In this document: positions 4,474-39,045 of the stretch, in pieces
Layout: every line of letters starts with the position of its first letter
How positions within the stretch are numbered: position 1 is the first letter of the stretch
Source: a virus
DNA: 64,000 nt
IMG/VR virus record: IMGVR_UViG_3300045988_073455
Reading direction: 5' to 3' (one strand)
Notes under the pieces: generated by a model
The model's database searches: none
The model's input: the letters and a program-made list of their open reading frames with translations, nothing else
Told to the model about the DNA's origin: nothing
Position numbers and translations under genes: made by a program

Positions 4474-4796
4474 AAGAATTTAAAGATTTGGTAGCTGGTG
4501 ATGATGTACTAGTTACAGGTAGGTCTTACAGACGTATCGTCAAAATTGATAAAGTGACAAAGACTCAAATTATTGTTAATAACGCTAGATTCAGAAGAGA
4601 TTCTGGCTGGCAATGCGGTAGTGATAGATGGAATGTTAGAAGAATATCTGTTCCTACAGAAAAGGAAATATCAGATGTTAAAGAAGAGAATCTTCGTAAG
4701 ACTCTCGTCTACGCTATCAGTTCTTTTGATTTCAAACGCTTATCAACAGATGAGTTAAAACAAGTGTACAATATTGTAAAAGGCAAAGAAAAATGA
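4470..4796 (+). CDS. hypothetical protein
   Basis: 108-aa ORF with GGAGG upstream. Confidence 0.55.
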   Translation: MKEFKDLVAGDDVLVTGRSYRRIVKIDKVTKTQIIVNNARFRRDSGWQCGSDRWNVRRISVPTEKEISDVKEENLRKTLVYAISSFDFKRLSTDELKQVYNIVKGKEK

Positions 4797-4954
4797 AAAA
4801 GAATAAATACTCATTAAAGATAAGTCGTAGCTTCTTTGGCGATACTACCCTTGATGGTTATCCAATAGCTACATATTCGAATGATGAATTGAAGATTCTA
4901 AAGAACCTGCTAAAACAGGTTTTGGGTGAAGTAAATGAATATATAAAAGACTAA
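4793..4954 (+). CDS. hypothetical small protein (53 aa)
   Basis: Hand-translated MKKNKYSLKISRSFFGD...NEYIKD. Its ATG overlaps the upstream TGA. Confidence 0.4.
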   Translation: MKKNKYSLKISRSFFGDTTLDGYPIATYSNDELKILKNLLKQVLGEVNEYIKD

Positions 4955-4958
4955 GCGT

Positions 4959-5138
4959 ATGAAAGAGTTTAAAGTTGGAGAAAGAGTAGTCTTGGAGATT
5001 ACTGAAACCGAGGAAGAAACTTGCTATGGTTGTTTCTTTTTTGGCAATAGTGCTTGTGAAGTTTGGAGGAAATACCCATGCGATTCTAAACTACGTAAGG
5101 ATAATAAGAATGTAATCTTTGAAGAGGTTAAGGAGTAA
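4959..5138 (+). CDS. hypothetical small protein (59 aa)
   Basis: Start lies in TAAGCGTATGAA (start-context motif II). Sequence MKEFKVGERVV... Confidence 0.4.
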   Translation: MKEFKVGERVVLEITETEEETCYGCFFFGNSACEVWRKYPCDSKLRKDNKNVIFEEVKE

Positions 5139-5143
5139 AGCGT

Positions 5144-5317
5144 ATGAAACAGAAGTTGAAAATGATATGGCGAATCCTCCGTGACAGACAGGTTGTAGTA
5201 ATAACCGAAAGTTACGGAAGACTATATTGTAATTGGGATGCAAGAAGTCTTGAAGATGTTTGCCAAATGTGTTGTGAGACATTTGATAAAGCTAAAGAAA
5301 TGTTGGATAAAAAGTAA
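5144..5317 (+). CDS. hypothetical small protein (57 aa)
   Basis: Start lies in TAAAGCGTATGAA (motif II). Sequence MKQKLKMIWRIL... Confidence 0.4.
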   Translation: MKQKLKMIWRILRDRQVVVITESYGRLYCNWDARSLEDVCQMCCETFDKAKEMLDKK

Positions 5318-5323
5318 AGAGAT

Positions 5324-5866
5324 ATGTTGTACGAAGCAAAAAAGGGAAGTAAGGCTTACGAATACATTAAAGGTATTCTCGAAGCTGAAGAAAAAGAGCG
5401 TCAAGCCTACACGAAAAGAGTGGAAGAAGCCGTAGGCTTCGAGTTTGAAAAATATCAGGGCTATCAGCCTAACAGAACTCTCTCAAGAGAGTACGAGGTT
5501 ACTGCTATATGGGTTCTTTCTGAGCGTTACGATACGCTAGATAAGAAGGTGTGGAAGAAGATAGACGGTGTAAAATTGGAGGACGGTTACTATGTATGCA
5601 TTGCGCCTAACAAGCGTAGTAAGCAAGGTAAGGCAATAGCAGCAGTACTTACATCATATAAATCCTTTACTCATCATTTCAAGATATTGAAGGAACTGAA
5701 TATCGAAGTTCCGCACGTCAGCCGATTCTCCATCACCCAGCTTTTACGTCACAAAGAACGCATTTTCGTTTACTTCGATGATAGTATTAGAGCTGAGAAG
5801 CAAAATCCAGACTTCGTGGAAATCACGATAGGTGAGTATGAGGATTTCATTAATGGTAAAGACTAA
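5324..5866 (+). CDS. hypothetical protein
   Basis: 180-aa ORF. Confidence 0.6.
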   Translation: MLYEAKKGSKAYEYIKGILEAEEKERQAYTKRVEEAVGFEFEKYQGYQPNRTLSREYEVTAIWVLSERYDTLDKKVWKKIDGVKLEDGYYVCIAPNKRSKQGKAIAAVLTSYKSFTHHFKILKELNIEVPHVSRFSITQLLRHKERIFVYFDDSIRAEKQNPDFVEITIGEYEDFINGKD

Positions 5867-5870
5867 GCGT

Positions 5871-6281
5871 ATGGATAAGTTAGAATATATTCCAGGAGAT
5901 TTTGTGACAATAGAAACAGAATCAACGAAACCAAGAGTAGTAAAAGTTTCAGATGTTGATAAGAATAGTGTTATCTATTGTGAAGGTTGGGGAAATGTCG
6001 GTTACTATGACGAGATAAAACCTATTCCTTTAACAAAGGATATACTTCTTAGAAACGGATGGAAAGTTAGCAGAGATTCGTTGTTGCTAAAAATTGATGA
6101 TAATGTTACATTGGGGGTTGTCTTTGCATTTGAACATAAAGTTTGTTATATCAGAGCAACGAATGACATTATTCACAAAGAGCAAAATTTTACTAGGTTG
6201 AAGCTTTCTGATGTTGATTTTGTTTCTGATTTACAGCACATTCTTTTCGGCTTGAACATTAATCACGAAATGGAGGTGTAG
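5871..6281 (+). CDS. hypothetical protein
   Basis: Track ORF 5832..6281. The motif II ATG at 5871 (cTAAGCGTATGga) is the likely start. Confidence 0.55.
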   Translation: MDKLEYIPGDFVTIETESTKPRVVKVSDVDKNSVIYCEGWGNVGYYDEIKPIPLTKDILLRNGWKVSRDSLLLKIDDNVTLGVVFAFEHKVCYIRATNDIIHKEQNFTRLKLSDVDFVSDLQHILFGLNINHEMEV

Positions 6282-6283
6282 GT

Positions 6284-6478
6284 ATGAAAAGAATAATAGC
6301 AATTATAAAGTTTCCTATATACGCAATGGTTGTATTATTGTTTATTCTATCAATACTGACAGCAAAAGGTATATTGTGTATCGTAAGATTAAAGCCTTCT
6401 GATTTCGATAATCTTCCTAAGTTCTTGCAAGACAAAGCAAGGAAGCTGTCAAATGTGGTTGAAAATTTAATGAATTGA
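6284..6478 (+). CDS. small membrane protein
   Basis: 64 aa with a hydrophobic segment FPIYAMVVLLFILSILTA. Confidence 0.45.
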   Translation: MKRIIAIIKFPIYAMVVLLFILSILTAKGILCIVRLKPSDFDNLPKFLQDKARKLSNVVENLMN

Positions 6479-21034: not shown

Positions 21035-21272
21035 AACTGCACAAGCTGTGCAAAAGCTAAAAGATGGAGATTTGAAAGGAGCACTCTCCATCTTTTCTAC
21101 TTTTAAGTATGATTTCACAAGGGATGAACGTAGAATCATGCGAATTGCATACGAAACACTTTGCGGACATGGTGCTTTCTATCAATCATTAGGAATTGAT
21201 GCTAGTCAGATGATAGTAGATGCGTCAAGTATACTATACGATAAGTATCTGAATAACAATAAGTTAAACTAA
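21021..21272 (+). CDS. hypothetical protein
   Basis: Track ORF 21012..21272 with first ATG at 21021 (MKISKTAQAV...). Its last 32 nt are duplicated at 30867. Confidence 0.5.
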   Translation: MKISKTAQAVQKLKDGDLKGALSIFSTFKYDFTRDERRIMRIAYETLCGHGAFYQSLGIDASQMIVDASSILYDKYLNNNKLN

Positions 21273-21382
21273 GTTAGCAAAAAGTACTTTATGCTCAAAA
21301 CGTTTGGTCATTTGCAAAAAAATGATTACCTTTGCACTATCAAAAATAAATAATAACAATTAAAAGATAAGAGCAATGAAAC
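21241..21382 (+). repeat. direct repeat copy L (gene 3' end plus class I promoter plus leader)
   Basis: Near-identical to 30867..31014. There is one mismatch over roughly the first 107 nt, then small indels. Confidence 0.85.
21303..21334 (+). promoter_or_regulatory. class I promoter copy 4
   Basis: TTTGGTCA at 21303 and TAccTTTG at 21327..21334. Confidence 0.65.
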
Positions 21383-21654
21383 GATTTGAAGATTACGAAA
21401 AAGCTTATAATAAATGCTATGAACTTTTGCAAAAACTCACAGCATTGATAAAAGAGACAGATGGCAACCTCACTATCGAGATAAGATTTACTTATATTGA
21501 CAAATATCCAATGCTTTCTGTTAAATACTATTGTAATTACCTATACTCATTTCTTCCACAAGAAGATGGTACATTTATTATTTCTACAGACAATAAAATC
21601 TATACAATGGATGAAATTGAGGCGAAGATAAGAAAGAATTGTTATTTAGACTAA
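21376..21654 (+). CDS. hypothetical protein
   Basis: 92 aa. Motif I start with 16-nt complementarity to the candidate sRNA at 30682..30697. Confidence 0.55.
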   Translation: MKRFEDYEKAYNKCYELLQKLTALIKETDGNLTIEIRFTYIDKYPMLSVKYYCNYLYSFLPQEDGTFIISTDNKIYTMDEIEAKIRKNCYLD

Positions 21655-22038: not shown

Positions 22039-22072
22039 CTATTTGTTGATTAAATAATTTTATCTATCTTTG
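22039..22072 (+). promoter_or_regulatory. class II promoter copy 2
   Basis: CTATTTGTTGATTAAATA at 22039..22056 and TAtcTTTG at 22065..22072. It is preceded by AAAATAATTTCTCACTTTTTT, which is shared with the copy at 33205. Confidence 0.65.
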
Positions 22073-22090
22073 CAAAAAGTTACAAAAGAA

Positions 22091-22489
22091 ATGAAGATTT
22101 ATACATCATACTTCTCAAACGGAGCTAAGTTAGCAAAAGCTGGTATCATGATGATCGGCATTGCCCTCTACCCTCCGAAATGGTTTACAGGATTATCAAA
22201 CAAGTACGTGTCACCATCATGGGACATTCTTCACAACTCCAAATCGGAAGAAGATTACGTACAACGTTTCAATTCTGAGATATTGGCTCATCGGGACCCA
22301 AAAGCATTTCTCTCAGCAATAGAGAAAATGGCAAATGGAAAAGATGTAGCTCTATGTTGCTTCGAAAAGCCAGATGATTTTTGCCATCGCCACCTAGTGG
22401 CAAAATGGCTGAATGAAAAGCTGGGAGTGCAGGTCGAGGAATTTGGAATTTCCAAGAATCCTGTTTACTCGGAGCAAAGCTTGTTTTAG
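22091..22489 (+). CDS. DUF488-like protein
   Basis: First ATG of track ORF 22070..22489. Sequence MKIYTSYFSN...VALCCFEKPDDFCHRHLVAKWL (C-x-E...CHR signature). Confidence 0.55.
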   Translation: MKIYTSYFSNGAKLAKAGIMMIGIALYPPKWFTGLSNKYVSPSWDILHNSKSEEDYVQRFNSEILAHRDPKAFLSAIEKMANGKDVALCCFEKPDDFCHRHLVAKWLNEKLGVQVEEFGISKNPVYSEQSLF

Positions 22490-22573
22490 GAATTCCTCCT
22501 TTCAAAATACACACAATGGTTGACGGCTCGGAAAGACGAGCATTTTTGCGTGTATAGAATATTGTTATTATAA

Positions 22574-22646
22574 GCGGAGATAGCTCAGTTAGCAGAGCGC
22601 AGTGATACCATCACTGAGGTCGTTGGTGCGGCTCCAACTCTCCGCT
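22574..22646 (+). tRNA. non-canonical tRNA-Gly-like, anticodon ACC
   Basis: 73-nt cloverleaf. Acceptor GCGGAGA/TCTCCGC with discriminator U. D arm GCTC-AGTTAGCA-GAGC lacks G18G19. Anticodon arm CAGTG-ATACCAT-CACTG. T arm GTTGG-TGCGGCT-CCAAC has no TTC. Confidence 0.6.
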
Positions 22647-22651
22647 CTTTT

Positions 22652-22725
22652 GCGGGTATAGCTCAGTCGGTCAGAGCGTTACATTCCCAATGTGAAGGTC
22701 GAAGGTTCGAGTCCCTCTAGCCGCT
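22652..22725 (+). tRNA. tRNA-Gly (anticodon CCC) with stem mismatches
   Basis: Acceptor GCGGGTA/TAGCCGC has a G5.G68 mismatch, discriminator U. Anticodon loop TTCCCAA. T arm GAAGG-TTCGAGT-CCCTC has an A51.C63 mismatch. Confidence 0.7.
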
Positions 22726-22754
22726 CTATTTTTGTAGAATTAAAATAAAAGAGC

Positions 22755-23822
22755 ATGAAAATAGCAGTTATAGGAACGGGCAACGTGGGAGTAGCTTTTG
22801 CCGCAGACCTCTCTATTAAAGGTCATGAAGTTACACTCCTAAAGACATCTTCATACAAATCAGATGCCTTTGATAGACTTATCAAGAACGGCAAAAGGGT
22901 TTTTCTTAAAGAGAAATCAACTTATATAGAAACTGCAATCAAAGAGGTTTCTAAAGACCTCAGTAAGGTTGCAGAAGCAGAAGTTATATTTTGTACTATT
23001 CAGAGTAACTTCTATGAGGGTCTAGTAGAACGTATACATCAATACCTTCACAATGATCAGATTGTTGTCTGTATCTCTAGTTACGCATCCTCTTTCTATT
23101 TTGAGAAACATTGCAGAAAACTACCAATGTTAGTTGAAGCAACAGGTCCATATTTGGAAGGACGAGTAGAGTTGGATGATAAACCAAACGAAGTTGTTTT
23201 TCGTGTTGGTTATAGGCATGAAGTTATTCCTGTAGCATGCTTTTCTAATCATGATACCTGCATGGAGAAACTGCATAAAATTAGCAAAGGTTTTATAGCA
23301 AAATATTGCGTGCTTGAATCTGCATTACTCAATCCAAATATGGTGTTGCATACGGTAGGTTCAATTATGAGTATTCCGAGAATAGAATATTCAAAGGGAA
23401 ATTTCTGTATGTATCGTGAAGCATACGCAAGAGGAAATGACTCCACCATCAATCTATTGATGAGACTTGACGAAGAAAAGATGAAAGTCTTAAAAAGCTT
23501 GGGCTTTTTCAAAACAAGCGTATTTGAAGCAGGAGGTTTTAATATGTCAGACCCAATAGAGAGTTTGCATCGTTACTCAGAATCTAGTGATAGAGCCATC
23601 AGCCCAACATCTGTTCACTCACGTTACATCACAGAAGACGTTTCAGAGGGATTGGTACTGATGGAGAGTATTGCACTTCATATAGGCTTAGAGTTACCAG
23701 TTACATCATCCCTCATTACGCTTGCAAGTGTAGCTTTAGGAATAGACTTCCGTAAGACAGGAAGAACTATTCAGAGATTAGGTATTATTAACGAAATAGA
23801 TATGCTTCATGAATGTAGATAG
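22755..23822 (+). CDS. NAD(P)-dependent opine (octopine/nopaline) dehydrogenase-like oxidoreductase
   Basis: 355 aa. N-terminal Rossmann motif MKIAVIGTGNVGVAFAADL. The C-terminal RYITEDVSEGLVLMESIA...LPVTSSLITLAS resembles the octopine-DH C-domain. Confidence 0.6.
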   Translation: MKIAVIGTGNVGVAFAADLSIKGHEVTLLKTSSYKSDAFDRLIKNGKRVFLKEKSTYIETAIKEVSKDLSKVAEAEVIFCTIQSNFYEGLVERIHQYLHNDQIVVCISSYASSFYFEKHCRKLPMLVEATGPYLEGRVELDDKPNEVVFRVGYRHEVIPVACFSNHDTCMEKLHKISKGFIAKYCVLESALLNPNMVLHTVGSIMSIPRIEYSKGNFCMYREAYARGNDSTINLLMRLDEEKMKVLKSLGFFKTSVFEAGGFNMSDPIESLHRYSESSDRAISPTSVHSRYITEDVSEGLVLMESIALHIGLELPVTSSLITLASVALGIDFRKTGRTIQRLGIINEIDMLHECR

Positions 23823-25887
23823 CGATATAAAAAACAGAACATTTGGTATTGAAATCGAAATGTGCAATCTTGAAAGGGCGAAGGTAACTTTGCCCGAAGG
23901 TTACTCCTGGAGCAAGGAAGAGAGCATTGATAATACCGATTGTTCAAGCAATAAGCAGTTTGGTGGAGAGGTAAATACCCCTCCACTACATCTTTGCTGC
24001 CTAAAGGAATTGCACGACCTCCGCTCTGTATATGAATCAATGGTTGCTGCAGGTGGCAGGCTAAAATGGAGCATCTACACCCATGTGCACATTTATGTCG
24101 GTGATTTACCTGTTGATCAGATAAAGAAAGTATTCCTATTCTTCTATCTGTGTTACCATTATTTTAAGCAGTATGCTAAAATATCAGAATGCGATGAGCT
24201 TATATCCATAGCGATGCCAACTCCAACGGAAAAGTATTATAAAGGAGTCCTGCAGGCTCAGACTTTCGAGGATATTCAGAAGTTATTCACTAACAACTCA
24301 AACAAAGGTTTCATACGTCATGCAGTGAATATTTCTGCATATTTTAAGACAAAGACGATAGAGTTTAGACTTTATCATGCTACTGATGATTTCTATCAAG
24401 CTATGGCTTGTGTTCTTTCCACATACAGGCTATTTTATTACGCTATAAGCCACGAATTGGAGGATTTCAAATCAATTACATCATACCAGCAGTTCTGTGA
24501 GGTTACTGGGCTTAAATATGATGTTCCAGACGAATTATGTCCGCTAATCTACCAAGGAAATCCATACGACAAGGTAGAGTCGTATATGACAAAGCCTTTA
24601 CCATACAATTCTGAAATGGTTTCAGCTCTGTATGATGCTGTAAAAGCTAACGGACACAAGGAAATCTGCATAGTAAATGGCTTCATGTATTACTATGAGT
24701 TATTCTTCCTTGATAAGATGGAAGTATCTATATACTGCCAAGATGCCTACTGTTATCTGCTCTATATGTTGGCAAATGGTAAAACATCACTAACATATAA
24801 GGATAAGCTTGCATGGTTGGAGGACTATAACAATTCTACACCATCAAGACAGCTTGCTTTGGCTCTTTATGCGGTGAAACTGCAAAAGTATTTCATGAGT
24901 GAATCGGCAAGAAATAGTGCCATCTTCGAAGCGTTGAAAATTAAGGCAAGGGAATCTATCGAGAAAACCGAGGAGGCAAATGAGCGATTGATGAGATTAC
25001 TCACTACATGTGATTTCCATGTCGGAACACTAGAAGAAGCCATCAAGAATAAGAAGGTAATCTTCTTTAATTACGGAAGAATAGAGAAAAAGCAGAAGAG
25101 AGCATTCAAACTCATTTCTGAGAATAGTGACTTGAAATCAGACTTTTCTGTTGCAAGGAACGACTACTATAATCTTGTGGAAAGTATTCCGAGTGATAGT
25201 TATTTCTATTATTTCAGCAACAGCCCTTATCTGAGAAACCTGCATAAGATAGCTATGTGGAATAATTCAAGTGGGGAAAGACGGTCTGCAGGAAGGTTCC
25301 TATATTGCAATAAGCCAACTGCACAAAACAATGCAAGCACCTCGTATTCTTCATACAGAATCGAATGCAATGAGATAGTTCCTCCAGATGATTTGGAGAT
25401 TACAGACGCAAATAAGCTAAAGATTGAACGAGTAACCCCTCCTTTACTTCATTGCTTGCAAAAGAAGTATATCAAGAAGGTGGACCAATGTAGTGTCTGT
25501 CAATTTGCTTTTGTGGTGAAATACGACAAATATACCCTAGGTGGATTTGGTTTTACGCTACCTCAACACAAGGGGTATGATTTGTTTCAGTTAACGGACT
25601 TCTGCACGAATAACGCAATCCCTCGATTGAGTAAACTCATACTGTACTGCATTCAGTCTGTAGGCGTTCAAAGATATGTGAGCAGAAGAATGCGCAAGCT
25701 TTGCGAGAAGGTTATCTCCTGCGCTTATACCCATAAGCCAGTGAGTATGAAATATCGTGGCGTATACAAGAAAGTGAAGGAACACTGCACATCATCTTAT
25801 CTTGCTTACGAAGGAATACTTGGTATATACCCTACGAATAAGAAAATCATTGAGAAATATCAAAAATCGTTGAAGAATGGAAAATGA
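23809..25887 (+). CDS. Amidoligase_2 (GS-like COOH-NH2 ligase) fused to an approximately 460-aa uncharacterised C-terminal region
   Basis: 692 aa. The N-terminus has FGIEIEM...DNTD...GGEVNTPPL...THVHIY...HAVNISAYFKTKTIEFRLYHATDD. Its start overlaps the upstream gene by 14 nt. Confidence 0.65.
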   Translation: MNVDSDIKNRTFGIEIEMCNLERAKVTLPEGYSWSKEESIDNTDCSSNKQFGGEVNTPPLHLCCLKELHDLRSVYESMVAAGGRLKWSIYTHVHIYVGDLPVDQIKKVFLFFYLCYHYFKQYAKISECDELISIAMPTPTEKYYKGVLQAQTFEDIQKLFTNNSNKGFIRHAVNISAYFKTKTIEFRLYHATDDFYQAMACVLSTYRLFYYAISHELEDFKSITSYQQFCEVTGLKYDVPDELCPLIYQGNPYDKVESYMTKPLPYNSEMVSALYDAVKANGHKEICIVNGFMYYYELFFLDKMEVSIYCQDAYCYLLYMLANGKTSLTYKDKLAWLEDYNNSTPSRQLALALYAVKLQKYFMSESARNSAIFEALKIKARESIEKTEEANERLMRLLTTCDFHVGTLEEAIKNKKVIFFNYGRIEKKQKRAFKLISENSDLKSDFSVARNDYYNLVESIPSDSYFYYFSNSPYLRNLHKIAMWNNSSGERRSAGRFLYCNKPTAQNNASTSYSSYRIECNEIVPPDDLEITDANKLKIERVTPPLLHCLQKKYIKKVDQCSVCQFAFVVKYDKYTLGGFGFTLPQHKGYDLFQLTDFCTNNAIPRLSKLILYCIQSVGVQRYVSRRMRKLCEKVISCAYTHKPVSMKYRGVYKKVKEHCTSSYLAYEGILGIYPTNKKIIEKYQKSLKNGK

Positions 25888-26605
25888 AGATAGATGGAAA
25901 TACGCAAAAGTTGATATAAACCTCATAGATGAGGTAGAAATCAATGCAAATGAAATGTCGGGTGAAGACTTCGCCCAACTAACAGACAACATTGCTAAGT
26001 CTGGATTGAGTAGTGTGCCTACCTGTATCAAGAAGGATAATGGTAGATACATCATGATCAGCGGTAATCATCGTTTGAGAGCATGCAAGAAACTGCACTA
26101 TAAAATGCTAGGCATCTTATATGTAGAAGAGAGCGAGATTACAAATGATGAAGCTATTGCTATTGAATTATCTCACAACTCCCTTCATGGTGAAGCTAAT
26201 GTTAGCATCTTGAAGAAGTTGTTTGCATCAATTCAATCTATCGACTTCAAGAAGTTTGCTCATGTGAACATTGACGAGATTAAGCCCATAAGCACAGAGG
26301 GTATAAATGTATATGCCATGCAGGAGAATTTCGTATTCACAATCATCCTCTACCCTAGCTCATTTGCAAGTCTGGACACATTGTATGGGGATATTCGTGA
26401 ACAAGCTCGCAAAAGTGATGCTCTCGTTCTAGCTTCCGAAGAAGATAACGAGAAAACCCTGCTTAAAATCCAACAAGAGATAGGTAAGGAGTTTGGCATA
26501 AAATCCCCAAGCATCACATTTGCAAAGTTGCTAGAGTTAGCAAGTGAACGTTTAACCGAAATAAAGGAAGGAGAAAAAGAAAATGATTTGGAGCATAACA
26601 AGTAA
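25877..26605 (+). CDS. ParB N-terminal-domain (ParB/Srx) protein
   Basis: 242 aa with IMISGNHRLRACKKL (the GxHR motif). Overlaps the upstream gene by 11 nt. Confidence 0.65.
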   Translation: MENEDRWKYAKVDINLIDEVEINANEMSGEDFAQLTDNIAKSGLSSVPTCIKKDNGRYIMISGNHRLRACKKLHYKMLGILYVEESEITNDEAIAIELSHNSLHGEANVSILKKLFASIQSIDFKKFAHVNIDEIKPISTEGINVYAMQENFVFTIILYPSSFASLDTLYGDIREQARKSDALVLASEEDNEKTLLKIQQEIGKEFGIKSPSITFAKLLELASERLTEIKEGEKENDLEHNK

Positions 26606-27440
26606 GAAGGAAATGGAAGAACTGAATACACCTTCAGTTTTCAGATATTACCAAGAAGCACTTGGTAGAGAAAATATCCAATTAGCAGTTGTTGACGAGA
26701 CAGACAACCTCGACTTCATTGACAAAGAGGATGTCGTATTGCTAAGAACTGCAAGTGAGTTACTCATCAATACAATCCGAAAAAAAGGTGTAAGGACCAC
26801 GGCAGAAGATTTTAGCAAGTACGAACTTGTAAGGGATAAAGCTAAACTTGCAAGATGGCTTACAATGAATGGTATTAGAGTACCACATCAGTATCATCAG
26901 GTGTTTGACTTGCACGGAAAAACTTATTTCGTAAAGCCTAGATATGGAAGTGATAGTGTTGGTATCTCTGAACTAAACATCTGTCACACCGCGGATGAAA
27001 TCAGAGTTCAAACAAAAAAGCTTGATCCGAAAGGTAAAGGAGACGTTGTTATAGAAGACTTTATAAATGGAAGAGAATTTACGGTTGTCTGCATAAAAGG
27101 CTTTCCCCTCAGAACATTTGTAATGGAGGTAATCTGTACAACAAATGGCGGCATCCAAACATACGAAAGCAAGAAAAACTATATGGAGGTCGGCTGCAAG
27201 GTCTATGGAGATTTAGATGATAGGGCTAAGAGGATAGCTTCCGATGTTTTCTCCAGTCTTGGGTTACAACATCATGCACGTATTGATATGCGCTGCGATA
27301 ATGAAGGTAACCTTTACGTGATAGACGTCAATCTCCTTCCTGGTCTCGGACCTATTGGAGATTTAGCACGTTGCTTGTTGCTAACAGAAAATATGTCTTA
27401 CATAGATGCTTTGAAAGCAGTCATAGCATCTGCAAGTTAG
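26583..27440 (+). CDS. ATP-grasp ligase (D-Ala-D-Ala-ligase-like)
   Basis: 285 aa with YFVKPRYGSDSVGI, VIEDFINGREFTV and ARIDMRCDNEGNLYVIDVNLLPGL. Overlaps the ParB-like gene by 23 nt. Confidence 0.7.
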   Translation: MIWSITSKKEMEELNTPSVFRYYQEALGRENIQLAVVDETDNLDFIDKEDVVLLRTASELLINTIRKKGVRTTAEDFSKYELVRDKAKLARWLTMNGIRVPHQYHQVFDLHGKTYFVKPRYGSDSVGISELNICHTADEIRVQTKKLDPKGKGDVVIEDFINGREFTVVCIKGFPLRTFVMEVICTTNGGIQTYESKKNYMEVGCKVYGDLDDRAKRIASDVFSSLGLQHHARIDMRCDNEGNLYVIDVNLLPGLGPIGDLARCLLLTENMSYIDALKAVIASAS

Positions 27441-33400: not shown

Positions 33401-34135
33401 ATGAACAAGTATTACAGAAAAGTTCTTGAAGCACTGAAAACCAATCGAGACATTAAGGCATTGGGGTTCAGTCGTAAGGAGTTAAAGGGTGTTGCCGCCA
33501 ATGTTGCCAACAAACTTCAACTCAAAGATGATGCTACTGACGAAGAAGTTAGTGAAGGTATTAGTGACGCAATTGATGATGTCTTGCCGTTACTCCAGTT
33601 AACTCAGTCCGCAGCTGACCGCCAAGTCTCAGAGTACAAAAACGCTCATCCTGCACCCGATGATGACGATGATCCAGATGACGATCCAGATGATGATGAC
33701 GATCCAGCACGTAGAAGTCCGTCACGGAAGGGCAAGAAGGGCAAGAAGGATAGCGATGATGATGACTCCGCTACCCTCAACGCAATCAAGGAACTTACGA
33801 AGGCTGTTGCTACACTCCAAGGTGATGTAACTGCATTGAAGTCTGGCAATACCACAAACAGCCGTACCGCAAAGGTAAGGGAACTGCTGAAGGACACAGG
33901 TAAGTTCGGAGAGCGTCGACTTAAATCTTTCTCTCACATGAAGTTTGAGAATGAAGAGGAGTTTGAGGACTACCTCGATGAGTTGAAGGAAGATATTGAG
34001 GAAGAGAACAAGGAAAGACTTGAAAAGGGTCTTGAAAAGCTTGGACGAATCCCTGCTCCCGATACCAAACCTCAGCCAAAGGAGGAAGATAAGTTAATGT
34101 CTGATGATGAAGTCAAGAGGCTGGCTAAGATGTAA
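33401..34135 (+). CDS. putative scaffolding protein
   Basis: ATG at 33401 within track ORF 33377..34135. Highly charged and helical, with a D/P low-complexity tract (DDDDDPDDDPDDDDDP). Lies upstream of the capsid gene. Confidence 0.55.
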   Translation: MNKYYRKVLEALKTNRDIKALGFSRKELKGVAANVANKLQLKDDATDEEVSEGISDAIDDVLPLLQLTQSAADRQVSEYKNAHPAPDDDDDPDDDPDDDDDPARRSPSRKGKKGKKDSDDDDSATLNAIKELTKAVATLQGDVTALKSGNTTNSRTAKVRELLKDTGKFGERRLKSFSHMKFENEEEFEDYLDELKEDIEEENKERLEKGLEKLGRIPAPDTKPQPKEEDKLMSDDEVKRLAKM

Positions 34136-38194: not shown

Positions 38195-38302
38195 ACCCAA
38201 GTAGCTCAGTTGGTTAGAGCGAGACCAAAGTCCGTCACATGAAATCCAGTTGGTCTTTAAAAAGCTGGTTGAAAGACGCAGGTTCGAGTCCTGCCTTGGG
38301 TG
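38195..38302 (+). ncRNA. tRNA-like element with expanded, non-canonical anticodon/variable region
   Basis: Acceptor ACCCAAG/CTTGGGT, D arm GCTC-AGTTGGTTA-GAGC and T arm GCAGG-TTCGAGT-CCTGC are canonical. The 51 nt between them (38222..38272) do not form a 5-bp/7-nt anticodon arm. Confidence 0.55.
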
Positions 38303-38322
38303 CTAACAAATATTATTGGCTT

Positions 38323-39045
38323 ATGAAGAATGACATCGAAATTGGCGCTATTATAGCCATGGTGTTAACAGATACACCTCTAGGCATACAGGTAGGTAGA
38401 AGGCACATGTTCATCTACCCTCAGACTTTAGGCAAGATGTATTTGACAGCTCCACTGATTAAGCTGCTAGGCATCAAAGATGATAACCTAAAGCTAAATC
38501 CCCTCATTGAAGCACTCCGTGTAGTAGGTGAGAATCGAAGTCTCTGTTGTAAGCTAATAGCCTACCACACCCTTCAGAAGAAATCCGATATGCTCAGTTC
38601 ACGCATATTGAAGGCAAGGGAAAACATCATCTTCAAGTTCTGTGATAACGATGATATAGCTACTCTTCTCATCACCATACTCTCAGATAACAAGCTTCAC
38701 GACATAATCACGGAATGTGGGATAGACAAGGAAGCAGAGCGTATGGAGAAGATAAACCAAGCCAAAGACTTCAGCAATCAGTATATCTTTGGTGGCAGAA
38801 CCATTTGGGGCTCTCTCATTGACGCAGCTTGCGAGAGATATAAATGGACTCTTGACTATGTTCTGTGGGAAATCTCATACAACAACCTCACGCTTATGAT
38901 GAAGGATAAGATAACTTCCATCTATCTATCCGATGAGGAAAGAAAGAAGGCTCACATTCCATCAGCAACAGAGAAGGTCTTCAGCGGAGATAACAAAGAG
39001 GACATCATGGAGCTGATCAGACAGAGCGAAGAAAATCCAATTTAA
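38323..39045 (+). CDS. putative tail assembly chaperone
   Basis: ATG at 38323 (MKNDIEIG...). The upstream part of track ORF 38239..39045 overlaps the tRNA-like element. Lies before the tape measure gene. Confidence 0.45.
   Translation: MKNDIEIGAIIAMVLTDTPLGIQVGRRHMFIYPQTLGKMYLTAPLIKLLGIKDDNLKLNPLIEALRVVGENRSLCCKLIAYHTLQKKSDMLSSRILKARENIIFKFCDNDDIATLLITILSDNKLHDIITECGIDKEAERMEKINQAKDFSNQYIFGGRTIWGSLIDAACERYKWTLDYVLWEISYNNLTLMMKDKITSIYLSDEERKKAHIPSATEKVFSGDNKEDIMELIRQSEENPI

Follow-up and report, generated by a model that had tools for sequence, protein, structure and literature searches.

Phage-encoded, aberrant tRNA-Gly genes as candidate glycyl carriers for a Mom-like DNA modification

The stretch of viral DNA analysed here, called the window throughout, is the 64-kb IMG/VR record IMGVR_UViG_3300045988_073455. 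Our subject is a pair of adjacent tRNA-Gly genes, which lie upstream of a gene coding for a 692-amino-acid (aa) fusion protein with a C-terminal GNAT domain; the genes of this region are all on the + strand. We propose that the two tRNAs probably act as dedicated, translation-insulated glycyl carriers in a Mom-like DNA-hypermodification, that is anti-restriction, module, a reading that is based on sequence comparisons and to which we assign a probability of roughly 0.6. It starts from what was observed directly, namely the genes and their anomalies, conservation and covariation of the tRNAs, the domain folds and the co-occurrence of tRNA and enzyme across lineages. The Mom protein of phage Mu, to which the module is compared, is a GNAT enzyme that moves glycine from Gly-tRNAGly to the N6 position of adenine in double-stranded DNA, as described in a 2023 preprint that was published in 2026 (PMC13219725).

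Two tandem tRNA-Gly genes, one with aberrant loops

The two genes are:

22574..22646, + strand: tRNA-1, tRNA-Gly(ACC), termed class U; ARAGORN, Rfam (49.7 bits), cloverleaf parse and covariation over 19 distinct relatives
22652..22725, + strand: tRNA-2, tRNA-Gly(CCC), with near-canonical loops; ARAGORN, Rfam (61.5 bits), with mismatches flagged

Exactly two tRNAs are called by ARAGORN in the window, both of them tRNA-Gly (22574-22647 for the ACC and 22652-22726 for the CCC gene), and the cmscan scores of both lie above the gathering score of 29 of the Rfam model RF00005. When read as cloverleaves, both tRNAs carry G1-C72, C2-G71, G3-C70, U73, C35 and C36, and neither has an encoded CCA end. 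The identity set of the bacterial glycyl-tRNA synthetase (GlyRS) consists of U73, G1-C72, C2-G71 (G3-C70), C35 and C36 (PMC9976931).

Both tRNAs have anticodon loops of 7 nucleotides (nt) with U33. In tRNA-1, the anticodon loop is AUACCAU, the D loop AGUUAGCA and the T loop UGCGGCU. ACC is not a normal bacterial anticodon. At the site of G18G19 the D loop reads AG, so that the GG dinucleotide is gone and G19 is possibly kept; in the T loop, G58 replaces A58 and G55 replaces the uridine or pseudouridine (Psi), and Psi55 is therefore absent. The AG of the D loop and the UGC of the T loop are conserved across the 19 distinct relatives. The canonical D- and T-loop features of elongator tRNAs (G18G19; U54-U55(Psi)-C56) are both lacking in tRNA-1 and both present in tRNA-2. 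The peculiarities of tRNA-2 are found in its stems, where it has the mismatches G5.G68 and A51.C63. The T stem of tRNA-1 consists of G49-C65, U50-A64 and U51-A63.

An earlier note on this DNA, made from the sequence alone, had described the tandem ACC and CCC genes, the glycine identity set in both, the missing GG and the unusual T and anticodon loops of tRNA-1, and the two mismatches of tRNA-2, and had advised scoring both genes with ARAGORN. All of this is borne out: ARAGORN calls both genes as Gly and agrees with Rfam on their position, the cloverleaves contain the identity set, the loops read as described, and cmscan marks both mismatches as non-standard.

A third tRNA-like element lies far from the pair at 38195-38302 (+ strand), with an Rfam tRNA score of 47.4 bits. 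Its acceptor, D and T arms are normal, and ~52 nt stand in place of the anticodon arm. ARAGORN recognises the element in intron mode only, as a tRNA-Trp(CCA) that has a long variable arm and is interrupted by a 16-nt intron; we find this call unconvincing. It is located among tail genes, just 5' of a 1718-aa tape-measure-like open reading frame (ORF), and overlaps the start of the ORF at 38239-39045.

Glycine identity is kept while decoding features vary

To describe the constraint on these tRNAs, 25 distinct Gly-type tRNA bodies encoded near genes of this kind were surveyed. Compact tRNAs of 67-69 nt (L085, L181, L189, L162 and L243) were mis-parsed automatically; these were read by eye and are called deviant only. 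All 25 bodies start with GCG and end with CGCU, which gives G1-C72, C2-G71, G3-C70 and U73, and all save one have the CC doublet at the anticodon position. The one exception is the class U body of L045 (5805-5878), in which C36 is changed to G, giving ACG. It thereby combines the acceptor stem of a tRNA-Gly and an anticodon of the Arg type, would resemble the TadA substrate and may represent drift or a sequencing variant.

The remainder of the anticodon loop is far less constrained. Position 34 can be A, U, C or G, and close relatives that share one tRNA body can differ there in having A, U or C. Position 33 is A in L029, L047, L057, L080 and in Muribaculaceae, G in L050/51 and C in Cytobacillus, and the loop is 5 nt long in L162, 6 nt in L319 and in the distant lineage B described below, and 8 nt in L065 and L077. 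The near-absent anticodon ACC arose in four unrelated tRNA bodies. The T loop likewise deviates, with UGC in class U and L089 and UUU in L081 and L296. In tRNA-2, position 51-63 is mismatched in every variant (A.C, A.A or A.G); this pair is a determinant of EF-Tu specificity, as the earlier note had stated and as is cited in PMC7826273.

Alterations thus concentrate in the anticodon loop in many lineages, which would be in line with a different explanation, namely that the phages encode nuclease-resistant replacements or decoys of tRNAGly against a host defence that cleaves or depletes tRNAs, such as anticodon nucleases or PARIS. Phage-encoded tRNA variants reportedly rescue phages from tRNA-targeting immunity, according to a commentary on PARIS. 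However, a replacement must decode, and loops of 5, 6 or 8 nt, the loss of U33 and G55 argue otherwise; to our knowledge, these hosts are also not known to have an anticodon nuclease specific for Gly tRNAs, and a role in defence offers no explanation for why the tRNAs travel with one GNAT family across phyla. We therefore consider this explanation very unlikely.

The class U tRNA is maintained as a folded RNA. In the alignment, 95.7% of the cells of the cloverleaf are paired, compared with 39-52% in slid controls, and among the 19 distinct relatives 13 of the 21 pairs change on both sides, compared with 4.8 in shuffled alignments, none of 500 of which reached 13. Compensatory changes include G29-C41 to A-U and, at pair 51-63, U-A to A-U. 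As the stems covary, the tRNA genes are not decaying.

These data bear on a further pair of explanations, in which the GNAT enzyme acts on the tRNA or is regulated by it, for instance by N-acetylating Gly-tRNAGly as TacT does, or in which tRNA-1 is a decaying pseudogene or the remnant of an attachment site. The toxin TacT is a GNAT that recognises Gly-tRNAGly specifically via U73 and G71 (PMC9976931), both of which are conserved here, and the ACG variant of L045 looks like drift. Against a target role, the fusion of the GNAT domain to Dam-like and amidoligase domains and its ParB-like partner point to DNA as the substrate, and covariation and the strict retention of the identity elements speak against decay. 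The idea of an integration-site remnant was rejected, since the tRNAs have complete cloverleaves and are located mid-genome beside terminase genes, not at a prophage end. Taken together, we judge these explanations to be the least probable of those considered, and highly improbable. The pattern of conservation instead suggests that the tRNAs are functional RNAs, which appear to be selected for glycylation and not for decoding.

The tRNA genes accompany the GNAT fusion gene in related phages

In IMG/VR, we found 80 loci with a homologue of the 692-aa protein (69-99% identical), and Gly-type tRNA genes are located just upstream of the homologue in 76 of them; as the pair recurs to this extent, its presence in the window is not due to chance. 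The class U tRNA, defined by the acceptor GCGGAGA, a D loop without GG and a GGUGC T arm, is present in all three subclades, the ~70%-identity ones included, and its partner tRNA varies by subclade. The tRNAs are kept even in loci that lack the intervening opine dehydrogenase gene (L035-L046, L067, L073 and L075/76); their distance to the large gene is then ~45 nt.

The reverse search, for which the pattern of the class U tRNA was used to search IMG/VR, gave 88 stretches, of which 80 were read. A GNAT motif is found downstream of the tRNA in 49 of these and is absent in 2, where the tRNA lies between tail genes; the other 29 pieces do not extend far enough for a verdict.

Two contigs of rumen-type phages (L364 3727-3798 and L401 5643-5717) have a class U tRNA-Gly among their tail genes and not beside a GNAT gene, a position equivalent to that of the odd tRNA-like element of the window. 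L364 shares a contig with L061, which holds a homologue of the 692-aa protein, and hence the tRNA can relocate in the genome and yet be retained.

Gly-type tRNAs adjoin the same GNAT family in distant lineages

A distant lineage with full-length proteins, lineage B, has a GNAT domain that is only ~30% identical to that of the window, and a 70-nt Gly-type tRNA with the 6-nt anticodon loop AUUCCA is present in 68 of its 78 loci. The genes are arranged in the order DUF488, YopX, (tRNA-Phe), Gly-type tRNA, GNAT, pyridoxal phosphate (PLP)-like enzyme, 695-aa fusion, ParB-like, terminase, which is syntenic with the window; the two lineages therefore share ancestry. Since their divergence the accessory enzymes have changed and the tRNA has been retained.

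The type of tRNA found at L135 4401-4471 and at ~85 other loci (L084-L155, L194-L226) has a length of 70 nt, the AUUCCA loop and a 4-nt variable loop. It is labelled 'tRNA-???(tc)' by ARAGORN and occurs very commonly in viral contigs from the human gut, where in many cases an ordinary tRNA-Phe, tRNA-Cys or tRNA-Ser comes before it. Between the tRNAs and the fusion gene, the window has the opine dehydrogenase gene, L135 a second GNAT (Acetyltransf_1) and a PLP-fold-like gene (4695-6469), and L035-L046 no gene at all; an equivalent of the window's ATP-grasp gene is lacking in L135. These differences in accessory enzymes suggest that the lineages produce different final adducts.

When the GNAT domains were clustered at 60% identity, Gly-type tRNAs were found close to the gene in 8 of 28 clusters, and in no cluster were the nearby tRNAs exclusively of other types. 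We also surveyed the GNAT family with one genome per species. A Gly-type tRNA adjoins the GNAT gene in Dysgonomonas, rumen Bacteroidales, a Clostridia metagenome-assembled genome (MAG), Bacillus and Neobacillus; tRNAs of other types in the stretches of this survey mostly lie at a distance of several kb and resemble host genes. Prevotella vespertina and Prevotella sp. KH2C16 each have a tRNA pair that includes a class U tRNA, in a Dehalococcoidia MAG the tRNA ends 3 nt ahead of the gene, and Cytobacillus has a Gly-type tRNA with ACC and C33. In three Muribaculaceae (L257/L258/L276 6402-6476), a tRNA-Gly(ACC) with A33 and an encoded CCA end abuts a 694-aa amidoligase/GNAT gene, and its ACC anticodon is of independent origin; the tRNA reaches into the annotated start region of that gene. 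A shorter class of proteins of ~435 aa combines the Dam-like domain 1 with GNAT and is without amidoligase, and here a tRNA-Gly is found 3-900 nt upstream in several clades.

As a control we inspected 43 Mu-type mom loci (L409-L451; 375 kb), in which no tRNA was found within 4 kb; the locus of phage Mu itself (L161) likewise has none nearby. This is consistent with the use of host tRNAGly by Mom.

The 692-aa protein joins a GNAT domain to Dam-like and amidoligase domains

The fusion gene and its domains are located as follows:

23809..25887, + strand: 692-aa fusion of amidoligase, Dam-like and GNAT-phage-like domains (PF12224, PF22556, PF22559; phrog_2443)
23923..24390, + strand: Amidoligase_2 domain, aa 39-194 (PF12224, 2.6e-15)
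24523..25065, + strand: Dam-like domain ('phage DNA adenine methylase-like domain 2'), aa 239-419 (PF22556, 1e-90, 302.7 bits)
25411..25869, + strand: GNAT-phage-like domain ('phage GNAT-like domain'), aa 535-687, candidate glycyl-tRNA-dependent transferase (PF22559, 4e-36, 124.8 bits)

The matches to PF22559 and PF22556 both exceed the gathering score and occur in the usual architecture of the family; a Dam-like1 or Dam-like2 domain is found in 6 of 10 scanned homologues, or 7 of 10 when one match below the cut-off is counted. No NCBIfam model matches the 692-aa protein, and sequence searches of the PDB with the protein and the GNAT profile (phmmer, hmmsearch) gave nothing meaningful.

The AlphaFold2 model of the C-terminal domain has a GNAT fold with a predicted local distance difference test (pLDDT) score of 95. 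When it was used for a structure search of the PDB, all matches were GNATs, with template modelling (TM) scores of ~0.4-0.5, and the crystal structure of Mu Mom, 8bv8, appeared at ranks 3 and 5 (TM ~0.47). Among viral protein models, one match named as Mom was found at rank 33, and those at ranks 6, 18, 25, 29 and 43 are fusion proteins annotated as endonucleases, which we take to be Mom-endonuclease fusions. The GNAT fold is that of the aminoacyl-tRNA transferases Fem, L/F-transferase and Mom. Invariant residues of the family, in domain numbering, are G59, D78, S127, K129, Y130, R131, G132 and Y148, and the coenzyme A-binding motif R/Q-x-x-G-x-G/A is not seen in the family alignment.

For the middle of the protein (aa 215-530), a model with a pLDDT of 83 was obtained, and E. 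coli Dam accounts for 13 of its 16 best PDB matches, which are weak (E ~1e-3, TM 0.31-0.44); no DPPY-type motif is conserved in the Dam-like domain.

We also considered that the GNAT domain could be a divergent Mom, and dropped this idea, as the profile comparison gave no signal. Sequence comparisons place it in a GNAT family that is distinct from Mom and found in the same kind of context. The earlier note had advised looking for a Fem/GNAT-type transferase fold in the 692-aa protein; the protein does contain a GNAT fold, and by sequence the domain is a member of neither the Fem nor the Mom family.

Codon usage and the case for a role in translation

The most ordinary explanation for the pair would be that these are phage tRNAs that supplement the translation of Gly codons, and that their position beside modification genes is an accident of a hot spot for tRNA insertion. 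In the 72 ORFs of the window, Gly is encoded by GGT (40%), GGA (31%), GGC (23%) and GGG (6%). The CCC anticodon of tRNA-2 reads GGG, the rarest of these, while ACC would pair with GGU, the commonest, in Watson-Crick geometry. The first of these speaks against codon supplementation and the second for it. Consequently, the pair is not explained by codon usage alone, and the tRNA with A34 could still serve in translation. A supplementing role would also fit with the canonical D, T and anticodon loops and the high Rfam score of tRNA-2, and with the presence of other tRNAs at or next to the site: rumen relatives have tRNAs for Asn, Ile, Met, Lys, Ser and Arg there, and in lineage B the Gly-type gene is adjoined by Phe, Cys or Ser tRNAs.

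Other features are difficult to reconcile with such a role. Among close relatives, one and the same tRNA body can have A, U or C at position 34, several variants have lost U33, and anticodon loops of 5, 6 and 8 nt occur in other lineages. The contacts that involve G18 and position 55 of the T loop are near-universal in decoding tRNAs, and would be removed by G55 and the loss of G18. In addition, both confidently called tRNAs of the window are Gly (Rfam adds the third, atypical match), and Gly-type tRNAs recur beside the same GNAT family in unrelated phyla. We therefore regard codon supplementation as unlikely.

Several observations nevertheless weigh against the proposed carrier role. The two best-sampled lineages are syntenic and are thus not fully independent. 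Approximately 20 of the 28 GNAT clusters, mostly from environmental proteobacteria, have no tRNA nearby, and a private tRNA is therefore not required. No Gly gene is present within the stretch read at four of the related loci, and in view of the other tRNAs found in the rumen relatives, it has the character of a general tRNA island as well. ACC matches the commonest Gly codon, and with its canonical loops tRNA-2 could decode normally. The T stem of tRNA-1 is not the weak set described for staphylococci (see below), which makes weak EF-Tu binding a guess. Lastly, the GNAT domain is structurally as similar to ordinary acetyltransferases as to Mom (TM ~0.5), so that the choice of donor is not readable from the fold, and at the sequence level Mom hit PF25680 only and the GNAT domain of the window hit PF22559 only, with an hhalign probability of 0.2% between the domain and Mom.

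Gene neighbourhood and host

The remaining features of the region are:

22070..22489, + strand: DUF488-N3a gene, a conserved upstream neighbour (Pfam PF22751, 1e-12)
22526..22541, + strand: terminator-like hairpin followed by a run of T, in the gap that separates the tRNAs from the DUF488 gene (consensus scan only)
22755..23822, + strand: opine (octopine/nopaline) dehydrogenase-like NAD(P) oxidoreductase, accessory (PF02317, 1.7e-27)
25877..26605, + strand: ParB-N-like protein, its start overlapping the end of the 692-aa gene (phrog_7405, 1e-67; weak ParB_N, TIGR00180)
26583..27440, + strand: ATP-grasp (D-Ala-D-Ala ligase-like) amide ligase (PF07478, 2.6e-15; PF02655)

The DUF488-N3a family is also encoded just upstream of the tRNA cluster in the distant lineage of L135, with one YopX gene in between, and the ParB-N-like gene keeps its position there; our search of the literature on DUF488 returned nothing useful. 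The Ddl-type models of NCBIfam score below their cut-offs with the ATP-grasp protein. Downstream of this gene follow a small-terminase-like gene and then more late genes.

A protein 92% identical to the 692-aa fusion is named 'GNAT-like putative antirestriction protein [Segatella copri]' in one public source, from which we conclude that the element is a Segatella/Prevotella phage or prophage. A megablast search of GenBank for close phage relatives with 10 kb around the locus gave only one match, of 126 bp (window positions 21258-21383), which shares 85% identity with MT836221, an unannotated 'Bacteriophage sp.' contig that comes from human faeces. The sole tblastn match of the 692-aa protein was gp29 of Gordonia phage Clawz, with 27% identity over the GNAT part. 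The G+C content is ~0.37-0.40 over the first half of the window and climbs near 34000 to reach 0.42-0.48 in the half with the structural genes, with a peak at 40-44 kb inside the tape-measure-like ORF.

Proposed mechanism and implications

Under the carrier reading, the tRNAs would be transcribed, processed and provided with CCA by host enzymes. As all identity elements are conserved in both tRNAs, we propose that they are charged by the host glycyl-tRNA synthetase. tRNA-1, and perhaps tRNA-2 through its mismatch at 51-63, would be freed from the constraints of decoding, and tRNA-1 is probably poor at binding EF-Tu and the ribosome. This could provide a private pool of glycyl-tRNA that does not compete with translation, similar to the non-proteogenic tRNAGly that supply the Fem transferases in staphylococci. 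The C-terminal GNAT domain of the 692-aa protein would then move the glycyl group from the tRNA to DNA, and, by analogy with Mom of phage Mu, adenine N6 is its most likely acceptor there. In this scheme, the Dam-like middle domain would present the base and the ParB-like protein would help on double-stranded DNA, where other DNA-modifying enzymes of phages are known to be activated by ParB-like proteins (PMC13229309). A more elaborate adduct would then be made from the glycyl group by the amidoligase domain together with the ATP-grasp ligase and the opine dehydrogenase. The charging of the tRNAs, their avoidance of EF-Tu, the transfer of the glycyl group, its target in DNA and the nature of the final product are the parts that we infer.

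The earlier note had suggested that the tRNAs donate glycine to a non-ribosomal reaction of the neighbouring genes, which is supported by the GNAT fold, the co-occurrence with tRNA-Gly and the retention of identity with the loss of decoding features. The acceptor is likely to be DNA, and not a peptide or cell-wall precursor, because the Dam-like domain and the ParB-like partner indicate a Mom-like anti-restriction context. The note had also linked the tRNAs to the amide-ligase genes; these are indeed nearby, but the amidoligase and ATP-grasp enzymes are themselves not tRNA users, and the GNAT domain is the candidate transferase.

More tentatively, and with somewhat less than an even chance of being right, we suggest that the window belongs to a widespread hypermodification family of phages and prophages, GNAT-phage-like plus Dam-like with or without amidoligase, that uses its own chargeable tRNAGly, disabled for decoding repeatedly and independently, as a natural orthogonal carrier for a glycine-based base adduct that is elaborated further into a peptide-like or opine-like form. 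So far, tRNA-dependent DNA modification is known from one enzyme, Mu Mom. If our reading is true, this type of modification would be far more widespread and would reach the abundant Prevotella/Segatella phages of the human gut and prophages of several phyla. Viruses would then encode tRNAs for a purpose other than translation, which bears on the odd or 'undetermined' tRNA calls in viromes, and there would be a second, independent non-proteinogenic tRNAGly, previously thought to be confined to staphylococci. The variants would also offer a comparative handle on the tRNA features that steer between EF-Tu and other consumers. The work thus points to a DNA base adduct that may not have been described before, as well as to translation-insulated tRNA scaffolds for synthetic biology.

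Comparison with known systems

Similar to Mu Mom, the system of the window has a phage-encoded enzyme of GNAT fold in an anti-restriction context, and we propose that it likewise uses Gly-tRNAGly as donor, with adenine in double-stranded DNA as the acceptor suggested by the Dam-like domain. The glycyl group added by Mom rearranges to a carbamoylmethyl group (6-NcmdA, 'momylation'), any E. coli tRNAGly isoacceptor is accepted, and phage-encoded tRNAs or fusion proteins are not mentioned in the Mom paper (PMC13219725). In contrast to Mom, which belongs to PF25680, the domain of the window belongs to PF22559, and similarity between the profiles was not detected. It is furthermore part of a fusion with Dam-like and amidoligase domains, ParB-like, ATP-grasp and opine dehydrogenase genes lie on either side, and the product is probably more elaborate than the carbamoylmethyl group of Mom. 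Mu relies on host isoacceptors and has no nearby tRNA gene, whereas the phages of the window type encode their own aberrant tRNAGly. Mom has the essential residues R111, S124, D149 and R151 and a helix-turn-helix-like insertion; PF22559 has its own set of invariant residues in the sequence alignment, which includes D78, S127, K129, Y130, R131 and Y148.

The tRNAs themselves resemble those of staphylococci. In the staphylococcal non-proteogenic tRNAGly, TGC or TGT replaces the TTC of the T loop, pseudouridine is absent, position 19 is U(D) and the affinity for EF-Tu is low, and this lineage has been reported only in staphylococci (PMC7826273); the features named in the earlier note (loss of GG, GUGC for GTPsiC and avoidance of EF-Tu) match this description. 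Like the staphylococcal NP1-3, which feed FmhB, FemA and FemB (PMC7826273), the tRNAs described here are extra tRNAGly with UGC for UUC, a lost GG in the D loop, A-U or U-A rather than G-C at 51-63 and a retained GlyRS identity, and they are proposed to be glycine donors outside translation that are shielded from EF-Tu. Unlike NP1-3, they are viral and found in Bacteroidota hosts, which have no pentaglycine bridges, their partner is a GNAT-phage-like/Dam-like fusion and not a Fem transferase, their D loop has AG instead of UU, and position 34 is A, U or C compared with a fixed UCC. With the weak EF-Tu T stem of staphylococci (A49-U65, U50-A64, A51-U63), tRNA-1 shares only the lack of G51-C63, its pair 49-65 being G-C. 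As the published description confines the staphylococcal lineage to staphylococci, the likeness is most likely due to convergence.

As in ordinary phage tRNA clusters, the tandem tRNAs lie between the early and late gene blocks, and relatives hold other tRNAs there; unlike such clusters, the pair is Gly only, has lost decoding features with identity kept, and is tied to one enzyme family across phyla. In full-text literature searches for phage-encoded tRNAs with a link to the modification of DNA, the work on Mom was all that came up, and there a host tRNA is used. The GNAT-catalysed, tRNA-dependent transfer to DNA and the non-proteogenic tRNAGly are each known, and their combination is not described in the literature searched. 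On the basis of the sequences compared here, this new combination would consist of a distinct GNAT/Dam-like/amidoligase family together with virus-encoded, decoding-disabled tRNAGly, and would extend across phyla.

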